From the NCBI RefSeq assembly GCF_004010195.1, contig NC_057751.1:18415185-18479184 (forward strand): 64,000 bases of DNA, given 5' to 3'. The notes under the pieces were generated by a model. The model ran no database searches. It was not told where the DNA came from and saw only the letters and a list, made by a program, of their open reading frames with translations. The DNA comes from Chiloscyllium plagiosum. Taxonomy: Eukaryota. Position numbers and translations under genes: made by a program. Of this stretch, positions 3,381 to 62,660 are shown piece after piece. Numbering within the stretch: position 1 is the first letter of the stretch; each line of letters begins with the position of its first letter.

Positions 3381-3793
3381 TTATTCCATACCTATTTTCC
3401 GCATGCATTCTGTCTTTGTGTACCACTTCCTCTCAATTTACTTAACAATCGACTCAATCAGATTTCCACAGCAATCACTCTGGTTGCCGATTAGACTTGT
3501 TTATGAATGGATACCACATATATAAAACATCTTATCCCCTTCCTTCATTCACTGTGTTCTAAATCAGCCATTCAAATAGATTGCATGTGTATTCTTCTAA
3601 ATTCAGGTTTTGAGTAAATAAGTGGTAAACAACCTTATGTACCAAAGAAAATTGAGCTAATGCAATGAGCAAAATGGCATCTCCAATCATTGAAGGGAAT
3701 AAAACCAATGAAAATTTGAATCTCAGAATGTAAATTGTGCTTTACTCTGCATCTGATCCGAAAATTATATGATAATTTTTCTTTCTCTTTTAG

Positions 3794-4698
3794 TTAACCT
3801 CGTTGCAATCGTCATCCTGTCCCGCAGAATGTGTTCTTTGTCCAAATGCATCATTCGCTATCTATTTGGTATGGCAGTGGCTGATCTCCTCGTCGTGGTC
3901 ACGGAAGTAATACTTAGGTGGATGGCTGCAATGTATTTCCGAGATTCATTCCTGCTCATTACACCTGTTTGTTGCCTCACGACCACTTTGAGTTTTGCAG
4001 CTACAGTTGTTTCTATCTGGCTTACTGTAGCTTTCACATTTGATCGATTTGTGGCCATTTGCTGTGAGAAGCTAAAAACAAAGTACTGCACTGAAAAAAC
4101 AGCAACTGTGGTTCTAACAACAGTGAGCATACTGAGCTGTTTGGAAACCCTTCCCTGGTACTTTACACAGGAAGCTCGATTTATGATTGGCAGTGTTCCC
4201 TGGGAATGTAGGTTGAAACTAAGTGTTGTTTTTTCCACGTCATGGACCGCATTTATAATGTTTCATTTCGCATTAACTCCAATTCTCCCATTCTTTCTTG
4301 TCTTTCTCCTCAATATTCTGACTGTCAGACGAATTGTAGTGACAAGTAGAGTTCGACATGGGTTCCAGGGCTGCAGCATTGGAGAAAATCACAAAGATCG
4401 AGAGATGGAGAAGCGAAGGAGATCCATTGTTCTACTCTTCAGTATATCTGGCACTTTCATTATTTTATTGGTGACTCGTCTTGTTTATAATATTTATTTG
4501 CGAATTGCAAATATTGCATTTTATACCTCCCGCTCAGATCCCCGTTATATAACAGAACGGGCATCAGTCATGTTACAGCTTCTCAGTACCTGCACCAACA
4601 CTTTCATTTACACTGTGACTCAGCAAGAATTCAGAAATGAGCTCAAAAATGGTATAAAATACCCACTCAACCATATTGTAAAATTAATAAAACATTGA
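3794..4698 (+). CDS. Main coding exon (TM1 end to C-terminus) of a GPR139/GPR142-like class A GPCR
   Basis: Open frame with NLVAIVIL (TM1), MAVADL (TM2), FTFDRFVAIC (TM3), ECL2 Cys (WEC), RRRSIVLLFSISG (TM6), STCTNTFIY (TM7), helix 8 QEFRNEL. Polypyrimidine tract + TAG acceptor at 3776-3793 (phase 1); the ORF-track start MIIFLSLL is intronic. Confidence 0.9.
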
Positions 4699-5473
4699 AC
4701 CCTATTACAGCAACAGTAGACTTGACCCTAGTTAAATTATGCTGAAAGTAGAAAAATTCCCAGGACAGAATAAGCCTAAATCTGCAAGTGAGTTCACATA
4801 TCATTGCAGTCATAAACTGTTGGATCTTGTATCGAGTTGCGAGGATCATTGGTGAATGGTAAAAATGACAAAATGTAAGAATAACCACACAGTGTGCTAC
4901 TATGCATTGTGTGTATTACATTCGGCTCTCCAGTGTGTCATTAATTCACTTCTTTTATTCTGAATGATAACGACTTGAAAAAGAACTTAAATATTCTTGT
5001 CTGTATAATCAATACCCCCGGCTCCTTCCCCTCACTTTCGACTTCGCCATTTATTTTTTTCGTGTCAACTCTCCAGAGACAATTGCATGATGATCTATTA
5101 CATTTGGAGGCTCGAGAACACCGGGATTTCTTAAGGAGAAGGATCTGATAGCATGGAGAGCCGTTTCTGTCTGAGCTGAGGCTTCCTTGAGTACAGCTAA
5201 CATCAGTGCTGACATCAGGGATGGCAGCATCAAAAAGGCCCAGAAGTAGCATGTAGAACGATTGTTTTCACCACATTCTTGATGCCCAACTCCTCCTCCT
5301 ACCACTGTAAATATCTCTCTTGTAATTTTAGAACCCCTAATCATCCCACATCGACAGAACAACTTCAGGAGATCAATTTAAAATCATGTCACTCTCATGT
5401 TCAATGTGAGACATGGGTTGATATTTTTCACCACAAGCTTGCCAATTCTGCACCTTCGAAACAGCATGAGAAT

Positions 5474-5785
5474 TGGCTGCACAGTGGCTCAGTGATAATT
5501 ACTGCTGCCTCACAGCACAAGGCAACGGGGTTTATTTCCATCCTTGGGCGATGTATTTGTGGACTTTGCATGTTCTGCCATGCCTGTGCGAGTTTCGTCC
5601 GGTTGAACTGGTTGAACACTCAAAAAATCGGCAGATTAGGTGGATTGACCATGATACATTGCATCTTGTGTGCATGCTCAGCAAGTTACCTGTGCCAATT
5701 TCAGGGTTACAGCGATTCGATGGGGTGATCTTCAGTGGGTTAGTGTGAACTGTATGGACCGGGTGGCCTACCTGCACACCGCAAG
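5474..5785 (+). mobile_element. HE1-type (V-SINE) tRNA-derived SINE, diverged
   Basis: CAGTGGCTCAGTG..ACTGCTGCCTCACAGC head and GTGGACTTTGCATGTTCT body, matching the copy at 48731-49012. Confidence 0.65.
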
Positions 5786-5848
5786 AATTCTAATAATTGA
5801 AGTAAAGGTCTTTGCTCATCACTCCACAAATAATTCATTTGTCATTTA

Positions 5849-6589
5849 TGTTATGAAGTAGTAGGCGTGTACTGTACCTTTAGGAGAGAGATAATGCAAT
5901 TTTGCACTGAGAGCTTATACGCACTTGCCATTAGACTAACGAGCAGTCTCAGAGTGAACTGGGAAATTAAAAATATGCAGCATTTGGCTGTGGAATAGAT
6001 ACCTGAGTTGTTTTGACAACAATTCGAATTTAACCAATGAATTTAGTTGTGCCTCAGGATGATGAAACCAAATCGAATTTGAATTTGTTGTGTTTGTCAA
6101 CCTCGAACCAATGAGATGATGCAATGTGTCGGGTTCAAAGAAGCAGACAGTTTGACAGCTAGGCAGAGAGAGACCAACTGCTAACTTCCGGCAAACATTC
6201 TGTATCAAAGGTACTGTTTATATGTGAAGCATCTTTGCAGTAAAAGACAGAAGGTGACACAGGGAAATCTGCGGCCAGAACAAGACAGTCATCAATGCTC
6301 TGTGGTGTTAAACCTAAATTGATGTCATGTTCATATTTTCTTTATGGGAACATTATGTGATTATAGAATTAGAGGCAGAGAACAATCATTTAAGAAAAAG
6401 GAGCTGTATAGTTAGTTGTTGTTGTTTAATGCACACTTTTAGATTTCATGAAAAAATTGATATGTTTTCTTTAAATGGTGGAATTTAGCAGTTGTCTATC
6501 ACTCATACTTTAACAGATTAAGAGACGAGGTGAGTTTTCTTTTGGTGTTTGGGTTAATTAACAGAAGGGATCACTGCTGTGTCGTAACA
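5849..6589 (+). repeat. 5' LTR of Gmr1-like element
   Basis: Starts TGTTATGA and ends TCGTAACA (terminal inverted repeat); a homologous LTR lies inverted at 16070-16581. Confidence 0.8.
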
Positions 6590-9500
6590 GTTTCTTGGTT
6601 CTTCTGGTAATTGGTCAGGTATAGACAGATCCAGTCTGAGATTTGGACAGTTGTGAACAGATTTGGATTGCTAAATATCCCAGCAGATTTAAACACTTTT
6701 CGATTGGTGTCCCACATCTTTAAATAACCGTAGGGTTTGACGATTTGTTGAATTTTAGTCACTTGTAATGTTTAAATTAAAAGTGAGAGAAGCGGCTCTT
6801 AAGATTGCTCAAAAGCTTTTGGGGTTTGAAGGTGATTCCTAAATTTGCCAAGAAAATTTATGATCACAGAAAGAAAAAGCCATACATTTAGAATTAGCAA
6901 AGAGGTTGGAATTGGTTTTAACCAAGAACAAAAGGTAAAGCAGCGATTGTAAGCAAGTTACTTAGTCAAGCACTGACAACGAAACAACCAAGTACAGCAG
7001 AGTTAGAGAAACATAAATTTCATTTGAGGAATTTGAAGTTAGAAGACAAAGAAAGATAAAGAGAGAGATAAAGAGAGAGCAAAGAGAGAGAAAGGGCGAG
7101 AGAGAAGAAAGAAAGAGAGGGAAAATGAGACAGAGAAGAGAGAACAAAGACAGAGAGAAGAAAGGTAATGAGAGGAAAAAAGAGAGAGAATTTTCTTAGC
7201 TGAGCAAAGATATAGAGAGAATAAAGGGAGAGACAAAGAGAGAGAATGGAGATGGAAAATTGGAAAGGATATGAACTTCAGAATTTGCACGTTAGTCAGG
7301 ATACACAACTTCACAGATTGGAGATGAAGAGACCGGGTTCTGATATATACAAATATGTTAAAACATTGTCACATTTTGATGAGAAAGATGTCCACGCCTT
7401 CTTTATTTCATTCTTAAAAATGGCTAGTCCGATGAAGTGATCAGAGAACTGGTGGGTAATGCGAGATCAGTTTAACCTGGAAGGCAGAGTTATGAGCTAT
7501 TTCTTTGCTGTCATATGAGGGGTGAAGCCATTATGAAGATGTCAAACAGGCTATTTTGAATGCTTATGAATTTGTACCAGAAGCGTTTAGCCAGCAATTC
7601 AGAAAATTATAGAAGGAACCAGGTCAGATTTAGGTTTAGTTGGAAATAATTCATCAATAGTTTTGATGGATGGTTGTGGGTCGTAAAAATAGATAACAGA
7701 TATAAGGCTCTCAGAGAGATTATTATGCTGAAGGAGTCCAAAAACTCATTTCCAGAGATGTTAAGAAACCATGTGGATGAACAGAATGTTGAAGAATTGA
7801 GAAGAGCGGCAGAGATATTTGATGAATATGCATTGGTGCATAAGGAAAAGTTTAACTTCTGGCGAGCATTTCATCCTATGAGAGACAGAAATTGGGAGAA
7901 GAGCAGACCATACAATAGAAAACAAAGAGTATACAACTGGCAATAGTTTACCACAGTTTTAAAAAAGAAGCCCAAGAGTGGGAAAGGGACGTGAAAAGCA
8001 AGTTTTTCTTTTCGCTGTAACATAGTGTGTAAAATTTCAGTTGTGGTGGTTTAAGAAAAGATATTTTCGCTGTCTGAAAGTGGTACAAGTAAAGTCCCAG
8101 TACTGGTCAGTAAAGAAAGGCAGTGTGGGAAAAGATGCGGTAAAAGAAGCTAAGTCAGTGGCATTAGTGAATATAGTAAAAGAAACCTCAAGAAAAAGTC
8201 GTGGAGTGGCTGGCGAGTACACAGACTATGCAGGATGTTGGATATGGAGATCGTGCCTGATTTCTATACAGACCTCGCCTCTGTGGGTAAGGTTTAATTA
8301 GAAAGAGCAGAAGGAGATGACAAAGAAGTTATACTTCTGAGCGATTTGGTATCTGATCAGGCTCTAGCCTTAAAAGATTAATGTATTTTCACTGTTTCTG
8401 ATCTGCTTACTGAAAGAATAGTGATTTGTGTGGGAAATGGACAGAAGTTCAGCGTTCCCCTGTGTAAAATCGGGTTTGAGAAACAACTCAAGACTGGGAA
8501 GAAACAGTGGAAGTGATTGACACACTGCCAGTTCCAAGCATGCTATTTGCTCATGAGAACGATTTAGCAGGATCCAAGGTGGGAGGGACACCCCATGTTG
8601 TGGAGAAATCATAGATAGACCAGAGAATTGAGTAGTTAAAAGAAGCATACACTGAAAATTTTCCAGACTGTATAGTATCAAGATCCCACCATCATAAGTC
8701 ACAGCACGAAGCCAAAACGAAAGAGAAACATGGAAGAGTTGAGGTTCAGTTAGCGGACACACTGTTTGAAATAATGACAGGAAAAATAAATCTGAACCAG
8801 CAGAGGGTCAGACAGAAGTGTTTCATCCTGAAAGGCTAATGTTCTTGCAACATAAAGACGAGTAATTAAAAGATATATATGAGGATGCAAAATCAGAAAA
8901 GGAATCACAATATATCACCGAAGGTTATTATCTAAAAGGTAGAATTCGAAGACAAAAATCATGCTACAGCAGGTTACTGCAAGAGTCAAAATGGTCAGAC
9001 GTGCACCAGATTATGTTTCTGGAAACATATAGCCAGGGAGTGTTATGGGTAGTGCATGTTTTACCAACCGGAGCTCATCAATGTGTAAGGAAGACGCAAG
9101 ATAAGATACAAAAGCTTTTCTCTTAGCCACGAATGCAAAAGGACATGACTAATGTTTGCCGTATATGTCATCTGCCCAAAGTTAGGTAAGCCACAGGCAG
9201 TAATAAAATAACAATTCTGTTGCCAATTCCCACATTCGAAGAAGCGTTCAGGCGAGTTGTGACTAATTTGGTAGGTACGTTCCCGAAAACTAAAAGTTGG
9301 AAGCAATAACTGTTAACTATAATGGATGTGTCTATCAGATCTCTGGGAGCAATTCCATTATGGATTATCAAGGCAAAACGTGAGATAGACACGTGAATAG
9401 CTTCCCGAGGTAAGAGCAACCCAGAGAGTTTCAATCAGACCAAGTATGTAATTAAACTGCTAGGCAGTTTAAGGAAGTCATGGATAGCTTAGACATGCAG

Positions 9501-17994: not shown

Positions 17995-18445
17995 GCGATA
18001 TGCTGGTACAACAGTTAACACTGCTGCTTCACAGTGCTATAGACTCAGCATGTGCTCCCTGTGTTTGCATGCAATTTTTTTTCTGGGTGGTCTCGTTTCT
18101 GACCACATTCCGAAGATGTGCAGTCAGTTGAAATACACATTTTTAAATTGCCTATAGTGTTCAGGGATGTGCCTGCGGGAATAGATAGGTAGCATAATAG
18201 GGTAAGGAATGAGGTAGGTTAAAACAAGGACTACAGATGCTGGAAACCAGAGTCTAGATTAGAGAGATGCTGGAAAAGCACAGCAGGTGAGGCCGCATCC
18301 AAGGAGCCGGAAAATGGACGTTTCGGGCAAAAACTCTTCATCAGGAATAGAGGGTAAGGAATGAGTATAGGATGGGTACTGTTCAGAGTTTTGATATGGA
18401 TTTGTTCGGATAAATGGATTGTTTCCACACTGCATGGATTCTATC
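17995..18445 (+). mobile_element. HE1-type SINE split by a PLE-tail insertion
   Basis: GTTAACACTGCTGCTTCACAGTG head, CCGAAGATGTGCAG body, TGTTTCCACACTG tail; interrupted at 18214-18350. Confidence 0.7.
18214..18350 (-). mobile_element. 137-bp Penelope family-1 tail insertion carrying a hammerhead core
   Basis: Perfect 15-bp TSD AGGGTAAGGAATGAG (18199-18213 / 18351-18365); minus strand reads ATTC-CTGATGA-AGAGTTTTTGCCC-GAAA-CGTC; homologous to 44915-45049. Confidence 0.85.
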
Positions 18446-28822: not shown

Positions 28823-29900
28823 TGTTGGCATTGCACAACAAAAGACAAACAGGATTGTTCCCTCCCAGTTGGGGAACACTTCAGCCATCCAGGACATTCC
28901 AACTCGGACGTTCGGGTGACCATCCCCCAAGGTGGACTTCGGGACAGACAACAGCGAAAAGTGGCCAAGCAGAGGCTGATAGATAAGTTCCGTACCCATA
29001 GGGAGAGCTTCAACTTGGACCTTGGGTTCATATCACTCTACAGGTGACCACTATTGCACTGTCCACACACACAGACACTCCTACACACGCACAGAGACAC
29101 TCCTACACACACATGCACATGGATGCACACATACACAGAAACGCACACAGACACTCACACACACCCTTACAGACACACACAGTCCCACACTCACACATGC
29201 ATCCTCTCAGAGAGTTAGACTACTCTGCACTCACGTGCACGCATATACACTCTCTCTCACAGACATTCTCAACCCCCCACCCCACCCCAGACACAAACAC
29301 ACTCCCAAACTCAAAAATGCAACCCCCACAGACTTAAGACACTGGACACCCACACACACACACGCACACATGCACACACACAAAGACCCTTATGCACACA
29401 TATGCATATATGTTTGTGGGGTGAATTTGTACTTGCAGAGTTACATTGTACTTTGCTCAAAAACTGCATGAATTCATCTAATCTCACATTTTTTGATTAG
29501 AATCAATCTAAACATCATAGCATAGACAGAGAACACAGGGTGATAACACATTCAACATATTGTCTCGCTAACACCAATTGCTACAGTTAAACTGAAAACA
29601 CAACTTTTTTAAAAAAAATGTGATTTACACATGAAAGAAGTGAAACTATCATGTTATTCGAATAGATAAAAGACTCAATAGAAAATCAAGGCATATTTCA
29701 AGGTATAATTTCAGTTATATCACACTGTAAATGTTTGCTATTAATTCTGTGCCTTACAGTTGTGTCCTCCACAACCACCTGATGAAGGAGCGGCGCTCTG
29801 AAAGCTACTGTGCTTCCAGTTAAACCTGTTGGATTATAAGTTGTGTTCTGTAATGTTTAACTTTGTACACCCCAGTGCAACATCATCATCTCCAAATCAT
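28823..29900 (+). mobile_element. Penelope-like family 2, 3' fragment inserted into CR1 ORF1
   Basis: PVGEHFS..RQQRKVAKQRLIDKFRTH..FNLDLGF (GIY-YIG C-terminus), CA-rich UTR, hammerhead core at 29779; imperfect 15-bp TSD GTATATACCATTTTG / GTCTGTACCGTTTTG (28808-28822 / 29901-29915). Confidence 0.8.
29774..29812 (+). ncRNA. Minimal type I hammerhead ribozyme motif (PLE family 2)
   Basis: CAC-CUGAUGA-A-GGAGC(GGC)GCUCU-GAAA-GCUA; palindromic AGCU in stem III, CUA triplet; first stem I pair is mismatched. Confidence 0.6.
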
Positions 29901-32407: not shown

Positions 32408-35389
32408 AGTAGGTCCAATCAGGGACACCGGAGGGAACTTGTGCATTGATTCTGAGCAGATTGGGGAAGTCCTAAATTAGCTTTTTTGCTTCAGTTTTTA
32501 CCAAGGGAAGGGAACATGTTGTAAATGAAAACTTTGAGGAGCTAGGATACAGGGTTGACCAGATCAAGATTGATGACATTGATGTTTTGGAAATTTTGGA
32601 AAACATTAAGATTGATATCCCCAGGGCCAGACCAGATTTATCCATGTCTGCTCCAGGAAGCGAGAAAGGAGTTTGCTAAGCTGCTGGCGAGGATGTTGGC
32701 CTCCTCACTCTCCATGGGATTCGAAGGAGGTGAATTTTGTTCATCTTTTCAAGAGGGGTAATAGAGAATTCCCTGGCAATTGCAAACCAGTCAGTCTTAC
32801 GTCTGTGGTCAGCAGAGTTTTGGAAAGCATTCTGAGGGATAGGATTTATGACTATTTGGCAAAGCAGAGTGTGATTAAAGGCAGTCAGCCTGGCTTTGTG
32901 AGGGGCAAGTCATGCCTCACTAATCTTATTAAGTTTTTTGAGGAGGTGTCAAGACAGGTCGACGAATGTCAAGTAGTGGATGTGATGTATCTGGACTTCA
33001 GCAAGGCATTTGATAAGGTTCCCCATGGTAGGCTCATTCATGAAGTCAGCAAGTATGGCATACAGGGAAACTTGGCTATCTTAGTTCAAAATTGGCCGGC
33101 TGACAGAAGGCAGAGAGTGGCTGCAGATGCAAAGCATTCTTCCTGGAGGTCAGTGTTGAGTGGGGTGCCGCACGGCTCTGTTCTTGTGCCTCTGCTCTTT
33201 GCAATTTTTAAAAATGACTTGGATGAGGTTGAGGGGCGTGTTAGTAAATTTGTAGTTCACTCAAAGGTTGGAGGTGTCGTCGATAGTATAGAGGGCTACT
33301 GCAGGCTGCAGTGCGACATAGACAGGATGCAGAGCTGGGCTGAGAAATGGCAGATGGAGTTCAACCTGGATAAATGCGAAGTGATGCATTTTGGAAGTTC
33401 GAACCCAAATGCTGAATAAGACAGGATTCTTGGCAGTGTGGAGGAACAGAGGGATCTGGGTGTGCAAGTACATAGATCCCTCAAAGTTGCCACTTAAGTG
33501 GATAGGGTTGTTAAATAAGCATATGGCGTTTTGGCTTTCATTAATGGGGGATCAAGTTTAAGAGCCGTGAGGTTTTTCGTCATCTCCCCAAGTCCCTGGT
33601 GAGACTACACTTGGAATATTGTGTCCAGTTCGGGTCGTCCTTCTATAAGAAAGATATAAAGGCTTGGGAGAGGGTGCAAAGAACGTTTACCAGAATGCTG
33701 CCTGGACTGGAGGGCTTACATTATGAAAAATGTTTGAATAAACTCGGACGTTTCTCTCTGGAGAGAAGGAGAAAGAGAGGACACCTGATCGAGGTATACA
33801 AAATAATGAGTGAATTAAGAGAGAATCAATAACCAGAGACCTTTCCCCAGGGGATTGACTGTTACGAGGAGTCATGGTTAGAATATATTGGGAGGAAGTT
33901 GAAAAGGAGATGTCAGAGGTAGGTTCTTTACGCAGAGAGTTGTGAATGCATGGAATGTTTTGCCAGTTGTGATAGTAGAAGCAGAGTCATTGGGGACTTT
34001 AAAGCGACTGCTGGGCATGAACATGGATAGAAGTGAGTTGAGCGGTGCATAGTAAAGTTACTATATTTTACATTAGGATTAAACATCGGCACAACATTGT
34101 GGGCTAAATGGAATGTTTCGTGCTGTACTTTTCTATTTTATTTGTCTCTAAATAAGAAAGAAGTTTGATGAGGGCAGCGAGGTAGATGTGATCTAGATGC
34201 ACTTCAGTAAGTCATTCGACAATATTCGCAATGGGAGACTGATTAGCAAGGTTAGATCTCACGGGATACAGGAAGAACTAGCCATTTGGATACAGAATTG
34301 GCTCAAAGGTAGAAGATAGAGGTTGGTCGTAGAGGGTTGCCTTTCACTCTGTAGACCTGTGACCATAGTAGTGCCACAATGATCGCTGCTGGCTCCATTA
34401 CTTTTTGTCATTTATATAAATGATTTGTGTATAACTGTAAGTTACCGTTTGTAACTTGGCAGATGACACCAGAATTGGAGGGTTAGTGGACAGTGAAGAA
34501 GCTTACCCCAGATTGCAACGGGATCTTGATCAGATGGGCCAATGGGCTGAGAGGTGGTAGATGGAATTTAATTCAGATAAATGTGAGGTTCTGCATTTTG
34601 GGAAAGCAAATCTTAGCAGGACTTATTCACTTAATGGTAATGTCAGGAGGAGTGCTGCTGAACGAAGACACTTGCGAGTGCAGGTTCATAGCTCCTAGAA
34701 AGAGGAGTCGCAGGTAGATACGATAGTGAAGAAGACATTTGGTACGTTTTCCTTTATTGGTCAGAGTATTGAGTACGGGAGTTGGGAGGTCATGTTGCGA
34801 CTGTACAGGACATTGGAATGGCCTCTGTTGGAACGTTGCATGCAATTCTGGTCTCCTTCCTATCGGAAAGATGTTGTGAAATTTGAAAGGATTCAGAAAA
34901 GATTTACAAGGATGTTGACAGGGTTGGAGGATTTGAGTTTTCGGGAGAGGGTGAACCGGCTGGGACTACTTTCCCTGGAGCGTTGGAGGCTGAGGGATGA
35001 CATTATAGAGGTCTACAAATTCATGAGGGGCATGGATATGGTAATTAGACAAAGTCTTTTCCCTGGGGTGGGGGAGTCCATAACAAGAGCGCATAGGGTT
35101 AGGATGAAAGGGGAAAGATATAAAAGAGACTTAATGGGCAACTGTTTCATGCAGAAGGTGGTACGTGCATGGAATGAGCTGCCAGAGGAAGTGGTGGTAG
35201 CTAGTACAATTGCAACATTCAAGAGACATTTGGATGAGTATATGAATAGGAAGGGTTTGGAGGGATATGGTTCGGTTGTTGGCGGTGGGACTAGATTGGG
35301 TTGGGATATCTGGTCGGTAGGGATGAGTTTGACCAAAGGGTCTGTTTCTATGCTGTACATCTCAATGTCTCTACGACCTCCCCTCATTC

Positions 35390-36200: not shown

Positions 36201-36774
36201 TTCCAGCGCATACTGTGTGTCATGTGAATATGCTTAGACACATTTAAGTTGGCAAGAGTGAAAGGATAATGTGACACTGGGCACAACTCAGACTGAAGAG
36301 CCCAATCCATATGATTCTCAATTTGACGTTCTACAAATTGACTTCGTCAATAAGGAAGTTTTCAAAATTTGGGACATATTATGGTGTTAGCTTGCAGAGA
36401 AACATAAAAATATACTGAAAGCGTTATTTCAACTACCTGGAGACGAATGAGGGAAGCAGGTGGGAACTGATTATGCCTGATGTCGACATGGGAAATGCTC
36501 GACCAATGAAGCATATCCTTATAGAGTCAACCCTCTAAAATGGATGCTGCTTCAAAAATAAATGTAAGTATTCCACTGAAGGCAGGAAAGTTGAGTGCAG
36601 CGATTCCAGTCCACTAATTCCCCTATCCTGGAAAAGCAGCGTGGTGTTTTCGCTGTGTGGTTGACCAGGGTTGTGCTTCTGTTAAAGTTACCTTTTTGGA
36701 TCTACTCGCAGGAACGTGGACTCTGCGCTATTTGGATGATGCCCTTTGTGTCATGTATGTCTACACTTATTCAC

Positions 36775-36874
36775 TGTCTAGATTAGAGTTGTGCTGGAAA
36801 AGCACGGCAGGTCAGACAACATCCGAGAAGAAAAATCGACATTTCGGCCAAAAGACCTTCATCAGGACTTTTGC
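36775..36874 (-). mobile_element. 100-bp Penelope family-1 tail insertion
   Basis: Perfect 14-bp TSD CTACACTTATTCAC (36761-36774 / 36875-36888); homologous to 44915-45020. Confidence 0.85.
36833..36870 (-). ncRNA. Minimal type I hammerhead ribozyme motif, best preserved copy
   Basis: Minus strand: AAGUC-CUGAUGA-A-GGUC(UUUU)GGCC-GAAA-U-GUC-GAUUU; stems I and II fully paired allowing GU; conserved core intact. Confidence 0.7.
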
Positions 36875-38309
36875 CTACACTTATTCACGACTATTCGTTG
36901 CATAGGGTTTGGCACATTATGGGCCGTAGCCAGGCACCAAAACATACTATAAGGACCGATGTTGTTTTGTTTATGAAAGGTTAGAGCATTACGGGATAAC
37001 TGGATTGGATTGGTTCTAACTGGGAAACAATGTTGGCATGGACGAGTTGGTCTGTAGGTCCAGTTTTTTTGAGCTGTACTCTCCAGGACACTCCAGGATC
37101 CATCCATTGATCTTCGCCTTGCAGCAATATGAGCGATGAGTGATGGAAGCTGCATTGTGGTCGTGCCCTGATTGAGTTCAACAAACCAACACCAATCTCC
37201 TGTGGCTGCGGTTTAGTTCTACATTTCGAGGAGGAAACCCATCACAATTTTCAAGTCACCGCATCTTTCCCAGGCGGTGACAGCTAAAAGTCGAGTCAGT
37301 GACAATTAATGCAAGGAAACCAAGGTACAGTGTGATACGTGAGTTGATTTTGCCCCAGGCACCCGACTGCCCACCCTTCTTGGTGCAATAGGCAATAAAA
37401 TGTAATTGATTCAATGTAATTGGTGATTACCTTACAGACAACAGCCTGAGGAATGTTGCATACACGGGACATTACTCTACGCACTGCCGTTGAATACTTC
37501 AGTAATGAACTGGCACTAAGTCCTGCAATGGCACATCACTGTGGCCATTCCATCTGATACCAATGTTGTCACATCTCTAATATCTGTAGAAGCTTTTTCC
37601 CTCGTCCAGCAACACCAGTGTCAAGCTTCCCCCGAACCTCGTTAGTCGAACTGCCCGCATTTGACTATTTCTGTTTGCTTAATCTCTTGCAGAAATCTTG
37701 GGTCTTTGGAAAACTATTAGTGATTGGTTACGATGGTAACTGTGCTAGCATTTCTGATCGAACGGCTCAAATCGGCCTTATGCTCTTTGAGATATGTTAC
37801 TGCCTTTTTGCCCTCAATACCCTGACAGTCCTATCAACCCTGACATATCTGACGTCAACATGCACATTATCTCTGTAAACATGTAACGTGCCAACATCCC
37901 GCATCAGCCAGACTCTTTCAGCATTCCCATTGACATTCTTTCTTTTTGAGTCTCTCACTGTGGCCAACCCCATAGCATCGTGAATGCTGAATGCTCGAAT
38001 CCATCTACTAAATGCCGTTTGCTGCCCATCCCATGAGATTTACCCTGGAACCGGGCTGTACCCTCTGACTGACTCCATCACTCCACCTCCGACTGTGTAA
38101 CTGCGCCTTCCACAACTGTGACCTCTGACACAGGGGAGACTTGAAGATGACAGCGCCAACAACTTCCCCCCACACCTCTACTCAAGATCTCCATCGCTCT
38201 CTCCCCTTTAACATCCAATTCTGCATTCTCGCCTCTCATCCCGGAGCCCCAAAAAGCAATGTCACCTTCCCTGGTCTTCAAGCCGCAATCTGTGATTGTC
38301 ATTCATCAC

Positions 38310-40909: not shown

Positions 40910-43900
40910 TATGATGATGCTTTCCCTTTAACAAAGTAATGTTGTACTCGGTTTTTTCAAGGTGTCTCATAAATTGTGATATTATGAAAATATATGCTTA
41001 AGAATGTATTTTTTTTTAAGAATCACATAGACAATGAAAAGGCTGTCGCTAGTTTTCCAAGTTCAGGGCTTTTCTTTCTGGTTTGGTTTGGTTTAGCAGG
41101 CAGTCTGTTTAAAGCAGCTGTTCAAAGAAGGCTGCTGGGAGGAAAGATTTCTTTGTTTGAATACAAGTTTTCTGGCTGACCTTATCTATGAGATTTCTCC
41201 TGAATGAACCTGTGATTGACATTATTTGCCAAGGGCGTGTTATGGGGTGTTGCATGGCATTTGTAACTGCGTCATTAACTTGTTTAAGAGTCGATTGCGT
41301 TTTCAGATAGGTTAAGATGTTCTAAAGTCGAGAGCGTTGTGCTGGATACGCACAGCTGGTCAGGCAGCATCAGAGGAGGGGGAGAATATACGTTTCGGGC
41401 AAAAACCTTTCATGGGAAATGAAGCCTTTAGACGAGGGATTAGTAAGATAAATGGGAGCGGTGAGAGTGTAGGAAAGGTAACTGAGGGTGCGATAGATGG
41501 ATGGAGGTAGGTGTAATGGTGATAGGTCAGAGAGGAGGGTGAACTCAATAGGTGGAATAGAAGAGGGACAGGTAAGACAGGTCATGTGTGCAGTGTCGAA
41601 TTCGAGGTTGAGACGGAGATAAAGTGTGGCAGAGGAAATGACGAAACTGGTGAAACCCATGTTGTTATTGTGGGGTTGGAGGGTTCTGAGATGGAATTTG
41701 AGGCGTTCTTCCTCCGGTTGTCAGGTGATTAGGGAGTGGCGATGGAGGAGGCCGATGAACTACATGTTCTTGGTGGAATGGGAGGGGGTGTAGAAGTGTT
41801 CGGCCGTGGGGCAGTGAGGTTGGTTGGTGCGGGTGTCCCAGTGATGTTTTCTGAAGTGCTTTGCAAGTAACGTCCTGACTGCCCAATGTCGAGGAGACTG
41901 CATCAGGAGCAACGGATGCAGTAAATGACATGAATGGAAGTGCAGGTAAAACTCTGATGGATATTGAAGGCTCCTTTGAAACCTTGCACGGAGATGAGGG
42001 GGGAGGTGAGTAGGCAGGTTTTGCAATTCCTGCTTTGAGGGGTAAGGTGCTACGAGGGGATGGTGGGCTGCTGGGAGCTGTGGACATAGCAAGGAATTCA
42101 CGGAGGAAATGGACTTTATGGAAAGTGGATAGAGTTGGGAGGAACGTATATCTGTGGAAGTTGGTTCTGTGACTGCTGGCCAAACAATTATCTCCGCAAC
42201 CACCAGGCAGACAACCACCGCTGCTACTGCTATAAGATCCGCTGCTGTCGAAATTAACATGAGGCCAAACTGGAACATCACTTTTGCCCCCTTTGTTGCT
42301 GCTCCCCACCGACATCACCTACATAACGCACTCTACCACTTCCATCCACGTAGCTGCCACTGTCGCAACCACTTCCATGCCCACAGATGCCACTCACCTG
42401 AACACCACCAATAGAATCGCAGATGACTCAGCCCCCCCCCCCCCACACCACAGATCCCACAGTCACCACCTCGGTAAACGTCGGCATCCCCTGTTCCTCT
42501 ACAATCACGCCCACTCCAGTTAAAATCTCCAACCCCACTCCCATCTCCAGTTCAACACCAACACCTTTCTCCCATTGCTGCCGGTTTTTCACCATCATCC
42601 CAGACCTCCTCTTCACTAAGGACGAATGATCAGTACTCAGCAAAGGCATTCCCGTCATTTCCCTTCAGTTCTGGACCAACATATTCAATATGCATTATGA
42701 CATCGAACACTGCCTCCACCTCGAGGCTTATTTTATCCATCTAGAGTCACACACACCTTCCAGGGACCCGTTCTCCAGTCTCCAACACAGCCCATTCACC
42801 TGGATAACCTATGCCGGTCTGTTACCCGCCATTGATCTCTTTATATCTAATTGCCACTGCAACGTTGACCAGCTCAACCTGTCCACCCCCCTCATCTACT
42901 CCAACCTCGCAATGCGCAGCCCTTCGCTCCATCCATTCCAGCCACAACCTCATCATCAAATCAACAGATGGGGAGGTGGGTTGTGTAGTGGTAATTTGGC
43001 ACACTGACCCTTACATCGCTGAAGGCCGGTGCCAACTCGTAGACACATCCCCCTCGTGCCCCGTCGATCACGACTTCACCTCCCTTCACCAAAACATCAT
43101 CTGTCAGACCGCACACAACATCACTACCTCAGGGGTACTCCCACCCACAGCTTCCAACCTCACAGTTCCAGAACCCACTTCACCCAGTTTTGCCTCCTAC
43201 CCAATACCCACAAACCTGATTAATCCAGTTGACCCATTTTCTTGGCCTACTCCTGCTCCATCAAAATCACCTCCACATAAATTGATACTGTCCTATAAGC
43301 CCTGTAGCAGGAACACTGCATATGCATTCGAGACACCGCCCTTCGCCTCTCCTCATCTTCACCATGGGCATCCAGTCCCATACACCTCCATCCATCATGA
43401 CGAGCGCCTCCAAGCGCTCCATATCCTCCTGTCCCAAAGTTCTCACTACTACCCTCTACTGACACTCGTATTAGTTTGGCTGAACTGGTGCTCACCCTTA
43501 ATAATTTCTCCTTTGAATCATTCCACTTCCTCCAGATGAAAGGAGTACCCATGGGCATCTGCATGGGCCCCTGCCTGTCTCTTTGTCAGTTACGTGGATC
43601 AATCCATCTTCCTAAGTCACACTTTCACCATCCCCGCCGTTACTTTGATGACTGAATAGGAGTCACTTCGTGCCCCAAAGAAGACGTTGAACAGTTCATC
43701 GACTTCACTGACACATTCCACGCCGACCTTAAGTTCGCCTAGACCATATCAGACACCTCCCACCCCGCACCACCACCCGCACTTCCTAGATCTTCCCATT
43801 TACATCAACAGTAATTGACACCACACTGATATCTTCCTCAAATCCACCAACTCCCACAGCTACTTGGATTACACCTTCTCCCACCCTACCTCCTGCAAAA

Positions 43901-46900
43901 ATGCTATCGCTTATTCCCTATTCCGCTGCCGCCTCTGCTCCTAGGAGGACCAGTTCCACCACATAACACACCAGATGTCCTCCTTCTTTGAAGATCGCAA
44001 ATTCCCCTACCACGTCATTAATGATGCTGTCCAGCGCATCTCATCCGCTTCCTGCACCTGCGCCTTCGAACCTCACTGTTCTAACCACAACGAGGACAGA
44101 AACCTCCTCCCACCCCCCCCCCACCGATCCTCACGTTCTTACTGACTAACCACTGTATGCATCACATCATCCTCCACCATTTTTGCCAACTACAAACGGA
44201 CTCCACAACCAGAGATACATTTTCCAACCCACCCGATCCACTTTTCTTAAAGACCACGCCCTCCGTGACCCTCTTTTCAGATGCACGCTCCCCACCAACC
44301 CAACCTCCCCTGCCAGCACCTACACCTGCCACCACAATATTTGCGGAACCTCCACCCACACTTCCCTCTCACCTCGGTCCAAGGGCCCCATCGATCAGAG
44401 TTTTACATGCACGTCATTTTCTGCATCTGTTGCTCCTGATGTGATCTTCTCTACATTGGGAGACAGCATGCCTACTTGCAGAGCGGTTTAGTGGACAGAT
44501 CTGGGAAACTGATACCAACCAACCCCACTGCTCCCTGGACAAACACTTCAGCTCCCACTCGTACTGCGCCAAGCACCTGCAGATCCTAGGCCTCCTCTAC
44601 CGCCACTCCCTAGGCACCTGATCCCTGGAGGAAGAACGCTTCATCTTCTGCTTCATGAAACTGCAACCCCACAACATTAGTGTGGATTTCACCAGTTTCC
44701 TTATTCCCTCCCAACGTTATCCCAGATCCAACCTTCAACTCAGCACCGCTCTCATGACCTGTCCTATCTTTGCATCTTCCTTCCCACCCATCTGCTCCAT
44801 CTCCCCTCCAACCAACCACCATTACCCCCAACTCTGTCTACCTATCGCACTCTCAGCTGCCCTTACCCCCAGACTCACCCCCAACCATCTCTCTTACCAC
44901 CCCTGAGCTCAGAACTGTATTCCTGATGGAGGTTTTTTTGCCCAAAATGTCAATTCTCCTGCTCCTCGGATGCTGCCTGACCTGCTGTGCTTTTGCAGCA
45001 CCACACTTTCGATACTAATCTCCAGCATCTGCAGTCCTCACTTTCGCCTAAGTTACTCTAAATCCAATTCTCTTTAGTTCGTGTTTCATTCCGAATAAAC
45101 ACATCCCGTTTTCCTTAAAACTGAACGGTTGGTCCAGCAGCATCTCTCCTAAAATACCCACTTACACTAAAAAGAATTAAGAAAGTTATGGTCTGGACTA
45201 CCATTTTGAAATGATTTCAGGACTGATCCATAACAGCTTCCGGGCTCTTTGTGGGCTTAGTTTTATAGTTCAGATTTGGACTCAAAGGTGGTTTGTGTTA
45301 GTGTCTCATGTACAGGGTTTTGAATTTGCTTGGCTTATACAGTGCTTGTTGTGGCAATGGCTCTTTCAGCTTAGAGTTATTTGGGTGTAGAGGATGCGAC
45401 TTTGGCGAATTTATAAAATGTGAACAAGGCAGAGCTACTTGAATTGCAATTAATCTGGAGTTGGAGTTATTTTCGTTTGTAAGGCAAGAAATTGGAATTA
45501 CAGCAATGTCTCAGCATTTAAAATTTCCACAAACGTATGAACATTAGAATTTTAGTTTCAGGAGTAGGAGTAGGCTAACTGGCCCTTGCAGCCACAAGGG
45601 CTACACACTTTACTGTGTCACTCATCTTAGTATCTTCTGCTATGTGTGAACAACGCAAAGTCAATGCATTTATGAAATCTTATCCATATCCCATTTCACG
45701 TTTTGAAGACTGCATTTAAAAATTGGGAGAAGCAACGTATCTTTCCGAATGGGATTTGTTCAGAAGATTCTGGCAGATAAACTATTCCAAAAGCGCGAAG
45801 ATAAATTGCCTTCTGTGATGCCTAATGGACTGTGTCTATTAAAAATCATGCATTTTGGTATACAAATGTGCGAGGCTTATTTCAAAAATTAAACAGTGCG
45901 GTCAGTTCCGGAGTACCCAATTGTGTAATTTATATTGATGACGTGGTGATTTTGAGTCACACATCTGCATCATTTATCAGTGTTGTTCAATCGACTTCAG
46001 GAGGCAGACTTTGTGTTAAAACTGGCTTAGAGTGAATTTGCAAATGTTCAACGCATTTGTCTGAGCCGTGTGATTGGACATGGACAAATGACCCCACGGA
46101 ATGAAAACAAAGGTAATTGGGGAGTTCTAGTACTATCAACAAAAATTAGCAGTAGAGGAACAGCGATTCCTGGGATTGAGAGTATTTTATCGGTAACTCG
46201 CACCAAATTTTTGCAATGTGTTTACTCCTCTCACTGAGTTACTGAAGATAGGCAAGAAGTTAGTGGACAGCAGACTGTCAGGAGGCATTTCACAGCCTGA
46301 AATCTCTATTCACCACTGCTTTAGTGTTAACCACACCTCATGAAATGAAGCCATTTAAGGTGGCTGTTGAACTGACTGAAATGGGTTCGGTGTTGTGCTC
46401 TTGCAGGAAGATGACGAGAAGGTAGAAAGACCTATCTGGAATTTCGCAAGGAAGTTGAACATTCGTCAGCAGAAATATTCGACAATTGAGTAGCAGACCT
46501 TAACATTTCAACATTTGTGTTACCACGAATGTATCTGAGACAGTCATGTACACTAATCATAACCCTTTATAGTTTGTGGTGAAATGTAAGGACAAAAAAA
46601 ATCAGACTGTTTGGGTGAAGCATGTTGTTACAGCCAATCGGTTTGGAAATTACTCATGTGGCAGAATGCAAAAACATGATTTCCGCTGCATTGTCGAAAC
46701 TTGGACAAGAAACAGAGGCTTTTGATGTCAAGAGTAAATGATCTAATACAGAATGTAGTAGTGTATGTTTGCAAGTTTTTTAGTCAATGGCATGTATATG
46801 TATTGTAGGTTACTAACTGTTAGGTTTAAGGGGTTTTAATATGAATCCATTTTGGATATTAATGATTCAGCATTAAGGGGAAAGTATGATGATGCTGCTC

Positions 46901-47904: not shown

Positions 47905-48072
47905 AAATGTGTTGATGGATAAGCACAGCAGGTCAGGGAGCATCAAAGGAGCAGGAGAATCGACGTTTCGGGTCGATTCTCCTGCTCCTTGGATGCTGCC
48001 TGACCTGCTGCGCTTTTCCAGCAACACATTTTCAGCTCTGATCTCTAGCATCTGCAGTCCTCACTTTCTCCT
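47905..48072. mobile_element. Palindromic Penelope family-1 tail insertion
   Basis: Inverted arms centred ~47970; 15-bp TSD ATGTTTCT(A/G)GCCTTG (47890-47904 / 48073-48087). Confidence 0.85.
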
Positions 48073-48730
48073 ATGTTTCTGGCCTTGCCGTGTTTCCTAC
48101 AAAAGGCTCTGACTAAACGCCAATCTATTCACTGAACAACATTATGCAGTCCGAATCCCACTCTGTTCCCCCATCAATAGACAAGACCCTACTCATATGC
48201 TTCACTTCGCTATAATAAGCAGCTCCAAGCCCACGCAGTTTATTGAGCAACAGTCTTCTGTTCACATGTGTCGCTCATTGCCGAGCAACATATTCCGCAA
48301 TAGCTCATGTCAGGTTCATCTCACAGATTACTCTAGCGCTCACAAGAAACAGGCATCAGCAACGGTCCCACAATCCTCCTAGAGTATCAAGCTCCAGTGT
48401 CAATACCACTTAGTTCCTTCAGTCACGGAATCCAGAAAAGCTTTATTTCTTTCACTGAAAATATGCCCCACCTAAACTCTGACTTTATTCTCCAAAGAAC
48501 AGTCTCCAACCCGAATGCCACTATGGTCTGCGACCACCAGAGTGCTGTTCCAATGACTCACGGTTCCCCTTTTATCCTGACTTCACATTTTTAAAATAAC
48601 TGTCTCAGGCCTCATTAACAGATAAACCATTTTGAGGCAAATTCATACACTGCCCGGAAAGATTTTCTTATTCTCTATTTTCATTTAATGACAGACAACT
48701 AGAGCCATGCCCGATTACCAATCTTACAAG

Positions 48731-51818: not shown

Positions 51819-52128
51819 CCCACTTGTTTGTGTTTCGCCATTGTCCCTCTAAATTCTTAACCATTCATGGATCTTTTCAATGTTGTGAGTGCACTCATCT
51901 CCAGTACTTCTTCTGGCCGTTTGTTCCACACATGCGAGAACCTCGGTGTTAAAGAAAAATGCCCCTCAGGTTTTATAATGTTTTTAACCAAATAACCTTT
52001 AACCTACGCCATCTAGTTCAGATTTGCTGTGGCATTCTCACCTCACCTGATGACTAGTATCTGTGGCCTTGTCTGTCTCTCTCCAAGTCAGTTCCTTACA
52101 CATGTCGGCAACCAATTTCCAACCTCTG

Positions 52129-52327
52129 GATTAGTGGTGCTGGAAGAGCACAGCAGTTCAGGCAGCATCCAAGGAGCAGCAAAATCGACGTTTCGGGCAA
52201 AAGAGATCTTTTGCCCGAAACGTCGATTTCGCTGCTCCTTGGATGCTGCGTGAACTGCTGTGCTCTTCCAGTACCGTTAATCCAGAATCTGGTTTCCAGC
52301 ATCTGCAGTCATTGCTTGTACCTCGTT
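52129..52327. mobile_element. Palindromic Penelope family-1 tail insertion
   Basis: ~75-bp near-perfect inverted arms around AAAAGAGATCTTTT (~52199-52212); 15-bp TSD AATTTCC(A/T)ACCTCTG (52114-52128 / 52328-52342). Confidence 0.9.
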
Positions 52328-62490: not shown

Positions 62491-62533
62491 ACACTCCCTT
62501 TCACAAGAGAAACTTTGTCAGTGATTTATAATA

Positions 62534-62660
62534 GGAAAAAGTGAGGATTGCAGATTCTGGAGATCAGAGTCGAGAATGGGGAACTGGAAAAGCACAGCAT
62601 ATCAGGCAGAATCCGAAGAGCAGGAGAATCGACGTTTCATGCACAAGCGCTTCATCAGGA
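62534..62660 (-). mobile_element. ~127-bp Penelope family-1 tail insertion with hammerhead core
   Basis: Minus strand: ATC-CTGATGA-AGCGCTTGTGCAT-GAAA-CGTC-GAT; imperfect TSD TGATTTATAATA / TGTTTTATATTA. Confidence 0.75.

Follow-up and report, generated by a model that had tools for sequence, protein, structure and literature searches.

A 100-bp hammerhead-bearing insertion in Chiloscyllium plagiosum, probably a truncated pLTR copy of a Penelope-like element

The closest described relatives of the sequence studied here are the minimal hammerhead motifs (min-HHR) of metazoan Penelope-like elements (PLEs) (Cervera and de la Pena 2014, PMC4209133). An unmutated minimal motif was reported there to show no cleavage as a monomer and low cleavage as a dimer; the dimer model is also backed by PMC6765202 and PMC6155905. 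Frangieh et al. (2024, PMC11167929) described cleavage of a PLE hammerhead only when protein was present. An extra Zn-finger-like motif between RT and EN characterizes the Neptune/Nematis clades (PMC8557442), and pLTR promoters with initiator-like motifs have been described (PMC3846280, PMC2377424). A survey of non-LTR retrozymes (bioRxiv 10.64898/2026.07.22.740005) includes one chondrichthyan genome and may bear on the first family described below. The text of PMC4209133, supplements being outside the scope, does not name cartilaginous fish. Our literature search, with subscription papers, Repbase/Dfam and supplements outside its scope, returned neither a paper on this Penelope family in cartilaginous fish nor a report of a truncation pile-up at PLE hammerheads.

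The window, i.e. the whole stretch of 64,000 nucleotides that was analyzed, contains a short insertion with a hammerhead motif on its minus strand. This insertion is very probably a 5'-truncated pLTR copy of an endonuclease-bearing (EN+) Penelope-like element, likely made by the nuclease and RT of the element itself. It has likely decayed neutrally since then, and its hammerhead probably no longer cuts.

The insertion and its hammerhead motif

A repeat comparison within the window revealed identical 14-mers at 36761-36774 and 36875-36888, which enclose exactly 100 bp; the perfect 14-bp target-site duplication (TSD) described in the earlier note is thus borne out. The parts of the insertion are as follows.

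36761 to 36774, no strand: left TSD, an exact repeat of 14 bp, probably 15 bp with T36775
36775 to 36830, minus strand: pLTR sequence 3' of the hammerhead, with the shorter of the two preferred 3' ends of the family
36831 to 36837, minus strand: 3' strand of stem I; the first two pairs alone are conserved in the family, and the outer end has a private C>U and a 3-base deletion
36838 to 36845, minus strand: GAAA of the core, the minimal stem III and the GUC triplet at which cutting would occur; position 36841 carries U, the family base being C
36846 to 36857, minus strand: stem II and its loop, GGUC/GGCC here versus GGGC/GCCC in the family
36858 to 36867, minus strand: CUGAUGA core, extra A and, from the 5' strand of stem I, two bases of family sequence; the copy is truncated 5' at 36867
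36868 to 36874, plus strand: fold-back copy of loop II and stem II, 6-7 bases, at the truncation junction; provides the apparent outer stem I and a competing hairpin
36875 to 36888, no strand: right TSD, an exact repeat; one substitution at 36876 in a related species

The contigs of this related species cross from both flanks into the insert, and the flanks of the two species diverge by about 4-7% (27/687, 37/839 and 34/463). The insertion is present in both species and therefore predates their split. A search for the empty site in the relative, which the earlier note had proposed, consequently found an occupied site: the insertion is old, and its TSD status is inferred from the repeat and from the sister copies. 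The original duplication was probably 15 bp, judging from a T at 36889 in the related species that matches T36775.

On the minus strand the motif reads CUGAUGA (36865-36859), an extra A, stem II (36857-36854 paired with 36849-36846), GAAA (36845-36842), U and GUC (36840-36838), with the predicted cut between 36838 and 36837. The letters first written for it were confirmed on re-reading, and the statement that all core nucleotides are present holds for the invariant core (CUGA-GA, GAAA, U16.1 and C17). The motif, at about 36872-36831, makes up only about 40 of the 100 bases; the remaining 56 or so are further pLTR sequence, so that the insert is not essentially a hammerhead as had been claimed. 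Its 3' end lies at about +68 from the G of GUC and is devoid of a tail of about 34 bases.

Applied to the window together with 60 random stretches of 10 kb (647,425 bases in all), a descriptor of the minimal hammerhead found 33 matches, including the window copy, versus 0 after reversal of that DNA, which indicates that the motif is not due to chance. An Rfam scan of the window with covariance models gave no hammerhead, and the same holds for four loci with unmutated minimal motifs; these models are thus blind to the minimal motif. The hammerhead scan suggested earlier is therefore positive with the descriptor and empty with Rfam.

Over 95 columns, 39 of which are fixed by the search pattern, the window copy departs from the majority of 30 close copies by 9 substitutions and a 3-base deletion. 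The substitution at position 15.2 (36841) converts the ACGU palindrome of the family into AUGU. The palindromic 15.2-16.2 is hence absent, and the computed self-duplex energy is +2.6 kcal/mol for AUGU versus -1.7 kcal/mol for ACGU. With this change the motif is not the intact ribozyme that had been described, and the tiny stem-III palindrome on which dimers were thought to depend is lost in this copy. Private substitutions at 36855 and 36848 alter both bases of one stem II pair to U·G; the hairpin energy of stem II is -3.8 kcal/mol here versus -6.5 kcal/mol in the family. A U at this position occurs in 203 of 33,908 copies. The opposite base, in the 100 of them listed, is C in 96, U in 4 and G or A in none. 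A master subfamily with U·G in stem II was rejected on these numbers.

Only the inner two pairs of stem I have the family sequence, while five of its seven pairs come from the fold-back bases of the junction. The statement that stems I and II pair fully is thus correct on paper, yet it requires G·U wobbles and counts five outer pairs that are junction bases. This accidental stem I has 7 bp versus 2-4 bp in the family. The fold-back bases (36868-36873/4) pair better with stem II, to which they are complementary by construction, and the minimum-energy fold is the fold-back hairpin engaging CUGAUGA and not the hammerhead. The predicted share of the hammerhead fold is about 1e-3 in the window copy and 5e-5 to 0.14 in eight near-consensus copies. 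A low share was rejected as a sign of a dead copy, because near-consensus copies are equally low. Junction bases often lengthen stem I by accident in other copies as well, for instance at L102:2865, L119:6413, L128:6015 (6 bp) and L116:9230-9243. The window copy offers a useful caution: where a truncation junction has folded back, stem I can look deceptively long and a decayed motif can pass for intact, and a long stem I in such stubs should be compared with the family before it is trusted.

Judging from its bases, the hammerhead of the window copy is likely inactive. The core is retained, and U·G is a permitted wobble pair both at 15.2/16.2 and in stem II; some residual cleavage might therefore persist. 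On the same strand of the window, the nearest core matches of the first family lie at distances of 18.5 and 25.8 kb; there is thus no close dimer partner.

The family of origin

Within the window, eight further places resemble the insert with 75-81% identity. Genome-wide there were 3,365 first-look candidates; a 39-mer is matched exactly at 3,594 places and a 24-base pattern spanning the hammerhead at 33,908, with 0 matches for the controls. In 583,425 random bases we counted 116 arms (about 200 per Mb). This amounts to roughly 700,000 arms genome-wide when extrapolated to the 3.56-Gb assembly from the 17 largest contigs after C1.

In each of the 11 long copies that were fetched, the same pLTR immediately follows RT and GIY-YIG frames. 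A coding body also precedes the pLTR in a decayed element of the window at about 41.3-45.1 kb:

41324 to 45050, plus strand: decayed coding relative with an RT-GIY-YIG body, pLTR at 44919-45050 and an inverted truncated copy at the 5' side

By eye this 3.7-kb element, at 41313-45062, has a possible degenerate TSD (41313-41326 and 45049-45062, 11 of 14 bases alike). Four of 12 frames from the long relatives match RVT_1 or GIY-YIG in Pfam: RVT_1 occurs in three (best E 4.9e-8; one above the cut-off and two weaker) and GIY-YIG in one (E 5.6e-4, short of the Pfam cut-off). Eight decayed frames of the window at 41-48 kb gave no Pfam domain match. A CxxxxCxxC-type motif is present ahead of the nuclease in one long copy (L041) and degenerate in another (L038).

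From these comparisons the insert is identified as the minus-strand pLTR end of an endonuclease-bearing (RT plus GIY-YIG) PLE. The earlier note had proposed a retrotransposed unit consisting of the ribozyme only. A retrotransposed piece with a Penelope-type minimal type I hammerhead stands; the ribozyme-only unit is not supported, given that the same sequence follows RT/GIY-YIG frames in all long copies fetched and in the decayed copy of the window, and the insert is best read as the 5'-truncated end of a coding element. The window copy is an ordinary stub, one of several hundred thousand.

Other stubs of the family are found in the window. One is flanked by a TSD (18199-18364, with an exact 14-mer at 18199 and 18351) and has its minus-strand core at 18344 and a broken stem II. 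The stubs at 52125-52286 and 47913-48073 are palindromic and two-armed. Rfam matches to mir-2024 and mir-761 at 52167-52244 were far below the gathering score and were rejected as microRNAs; they represent the palindrome of the two-armed stub. A further first-family arm on the minus strand, at 62532-62660, has the long 3' end with the tail and a disrupted stem II.

Among 59 random copies that span the hammerhead, position 7 is the most variable core column (T27/A26); it is the sole free core position in the numbering of PMC4209133. Across the same copies stem II is maintained while loop II occurs in 7 variants. The genome contains a second hammerhead family, which differs from the first by AGCU instead of ACGU, GGAGC/GCUCC instead of GGGC/GCCC and A-U instead of U-A in stem I. 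Decayed copies of this second family are located in the window at 29779 (plus strand) and 11413 (minus strand). The covariation in stems I-III between the two masters is convincing support for a minimal hammerhead, with two families representing few independent events. The covariation check proposed earlier is thus positive between the families and negative for the changes of the window copy, where none of the 100 listed copies with U is compensated.

The stem-III CpG reads CG in 44, CA in 34, TG in 19 and TA in 3 of the 100 copies listed. CA, which breaks the pair, occurs as freely as TG, which leaves a wobble; this suggests that copies decay neutrally after insertion and without regard to the motif. 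An AUGU master subfamily is not supported, as CA is commoner than TG.

Insertion ends, proposed origin and alternatives

We inspected the first 30 matches of the 39-mer, 16 of which are clearly flanked by a TSD of 10-19 bp. Relative to the G of GUC, seven of these 16 terminate on the 3' side at +66 to +74 and nine at +96 to +104. The two ends are about 34 bases apart and correspond to a pLTR with an optional tail. A subfamily-aware map assigned 119 random arms to 97 events, of which 26 are inverted; inverted 5'-truncated copies with a TSD, as known from Penelope-like insertions, are frequent.

The 5' ends of these events are unevenly distributed. With the cut site at +3, three lie at +9 to +40, four at -3 to +9, seven at -15 to -3, 50 at -41 to -15, ten at -100 to -41 and 23 beyond -100. 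Hence 50 of the 97 insertions end in the 26 bases over the 5' half of the hammerhead, and 90 read through the cut site. The loss rate per base is 0.023 in the peak zone versus 0.005-0.0065 on either side; local alignment misplaces the ends by a few bases, and any subfamily that lacks two long partners in the library would inflate the peak. Independent support for the peak comes from seven copies bounded by a TSD, whose 5' ends lie at -24 to -36. A sharp single 5' end at -29 was rejected as partly an artefact of a single reference (subfamily bias); on the subfamily-aware map the zone is broad, from -41 to -15.

This family pattern bears on the part that the hammerhead plays in transposition and predicts either a start of the element transcript or a pause of the enzyme. 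Read-through by 90 of 97 events, with four ending near the cut site, fits the in vitro evidence for an uncut RNA template. We tentatively propose, as a reading with perhaps a minority chance of being correct, that the hammerhead region sets where Penelope copying stops in this genome and that stubs of 95-135 bases are the main product. The element RNA may start just 5' of the hammerhead, so that reverse transcription runs off; alternatively, the folded uncut ribozyme may stall the enzyme. The sequence CATTC/TATTC just 5' of the hammerhead presumably resembles the initiator consensus. If this proposal is true, minimal hammerheads that are intact by the descriptor number in the order of 10^5 in the genome, many of them as inverted pairs, and the motif acts as a boundary signal and not as scissors.

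For the window copy, the origin that we favor, a truncated pLTR copy of an EN+ PLE, would comprise these events. The GIY-YIG nuclease would make a staggered target cut of 14-15 bases. Reverse transcription would begin internally on the element RNA, some 65 bases 3' of the cut site, as suggested by PMC11167929 together with the two clusters of 3' ends. The copy passes the GUC site, which implies a template of uncut or rejoined RNA. It stops two bases 5' of CUGAUGA, in the zone where about half of the insertions stop. The cDNA end would then fold back via a 3-base microhomology, copy 6-7 bases of stem II and join the second target end. The substitutions and the deletion, including those at the stem-III CpG and at both bases of one stem II pair, would represent later decay. 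The family motif is a minimal type I hammerhead, and cutting would need a dimer partner or the element protein.

The junction of the window copy occurs 30 times in the genome, and in 20 such loci that were fetched the arms measure 6-88 bases. A close analogue (L152) is 108 bp long with a 15-bp TSD. In most of the 20 loci the arms end near two preferred start points, one short and one long. This would fit priming on both strands, and the Anolis protein is described as cutting and extending both strands (PMC11167929). Long two-armed insertions are better explained by priming from both cut strands, given that their outer ends lie near the two start points. By the same logic the short inverted end of the window copy could be a second arm that was primed on the opposite strand of the cut DNA and then aborted, instead of a snap-back of the cDNA, which we consider unlikely while granting it an appreciable chance. 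The outer end of its 6-7-base arm is in stem II, off any preferred start point, and two other short arms (L137 and L148) run into scrambled element pieces, as transient template switches would. This alternative alters the fold-back step alone; the identity of the insert is unchanged.

A more different origin would be a dedicated short non-autonomous element, SINE- or retrozyme-like, in which a hammerhead RNA of 100-135 bases comes from its own masters and is copied in trans by the Penelope protein. Ending within 100 bases 5' of GUC, 74 of the 97 random events would suit it, as would several simple TSD-flanked copies of 95-135 bp. There are precedents in non-autonomous PLE derivatives such as MRC1 (PMC8557442) and in retrozymes as relatives of pLTRs (bioRxiv 10.64898/2026.07.22.740005). 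It is nevertheless improbable: the 5' ends are spread over about 25 bases with junctions that vary from copy to copy, including the few occurrences and diverse arms of the window junction; no match elsewhere in the genome, of the 40 that were scored, is better than 91%; and 23 of the 97 events continue at least 100 bases into the coding body. Furthermore, the window insert is a single unit, with one copy between the TSDs and no tandem array. Even less credence, very little indeed, can be given to the idea that the ribozyme is still active or has been co-opted and cleaves a transcript, be it antisense or intergenic, in a GPCR cluster. The GPCR sequences concerned are:

3757 to 4698 in the window, plus strand: single-exon GPCR ORF, rhodopsin family (7tm_1, E 8.9e-18)
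L159:121-1026 and L161:1549-2454, downstream of the window, plus strand: GPCR paralogues, 48% and 57% identical
L155:4379-4809, upstream of the window: GPCR fragment

The GPCR cluster to which the earlier note referred exists, on the plus strand; its nearest ORFs are about 32 kb upstream and about 27 kb downstream of the insert. Activity would be consistent with intact core bases, a possible 7-bp stem I, retention of the insertion in two species and the finding that a PLE hammerhead can cut with protein help (PMC11167929). Against this stand the loss of the palindrome, the weakened stem II, the competing hairpin, the distance to same-strand cores and to the GPCR ORFs, and the poor cleavage reported for unmutated minimal PLE hammerheads in PMC4209133; neutral DNA would be retained in two such close species in any case.

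Comparison with known systems

The first family resembles the min-HHR of metazoan PLEs (PMC4209133) in the CUGANGA core, the extra base before stem II, the G10.1-C11.1 pair, the palindromic 15.2-16.2 and the location in a pLTR, and in occurring mostly as dispersed single motifs of truncated elements. It differs in that stem II has 4 bp versus 7-8 bp in the Schistosoma families, and in its number, with 33,908 exact 24-mers versus about 4,000-9,000 motifs given for coelacanth and Xenopus; in the window copy the palindrome is lost. The window copy belongs with the truncated PLE copies of these widespread single minimal hammerheads.

With insertions of EN+ PLEs of the Neptune/Nematis type (PMC8557442, PMC3846280) the family shares the order RT then GIY-YIG, apparently a Cys-rich linker before the nuclease, and a pLTR, as well as 5' truncation, an inverted 5' copy, an optional one-sided tail of 30-40 bp and a TSD. 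In contrast to the EN+ PLEs of Adineta described there, the TSD is mostly 12-18 bp here versus 8-10 bp; unlike the insertions in these reports, the window copy retains no more than the final 92 or so bases together with an inverted end of 6-7 bases.

Two internal RT start points 3' of the hammerhead, which define the tail, and uncut RNA as the template are features in common with Poseidon PAc of Anolis (PMC11167929). PAc belongs to another clade, the evidence there was obtained in vitro while ours is inferred from insertion ends, and that report is not known to mention a pile-up of 5' ends at the hammerhead. Non-LTR retrozymes (bioRxiv 10.64898/2026.07.22.740005) are similar in being non-coding and related to pLTRs and in having a type I hammerhead; they are tandem with at least two hammerhead units, whereas the window copy is solitary and truncated and has a fold-back end.
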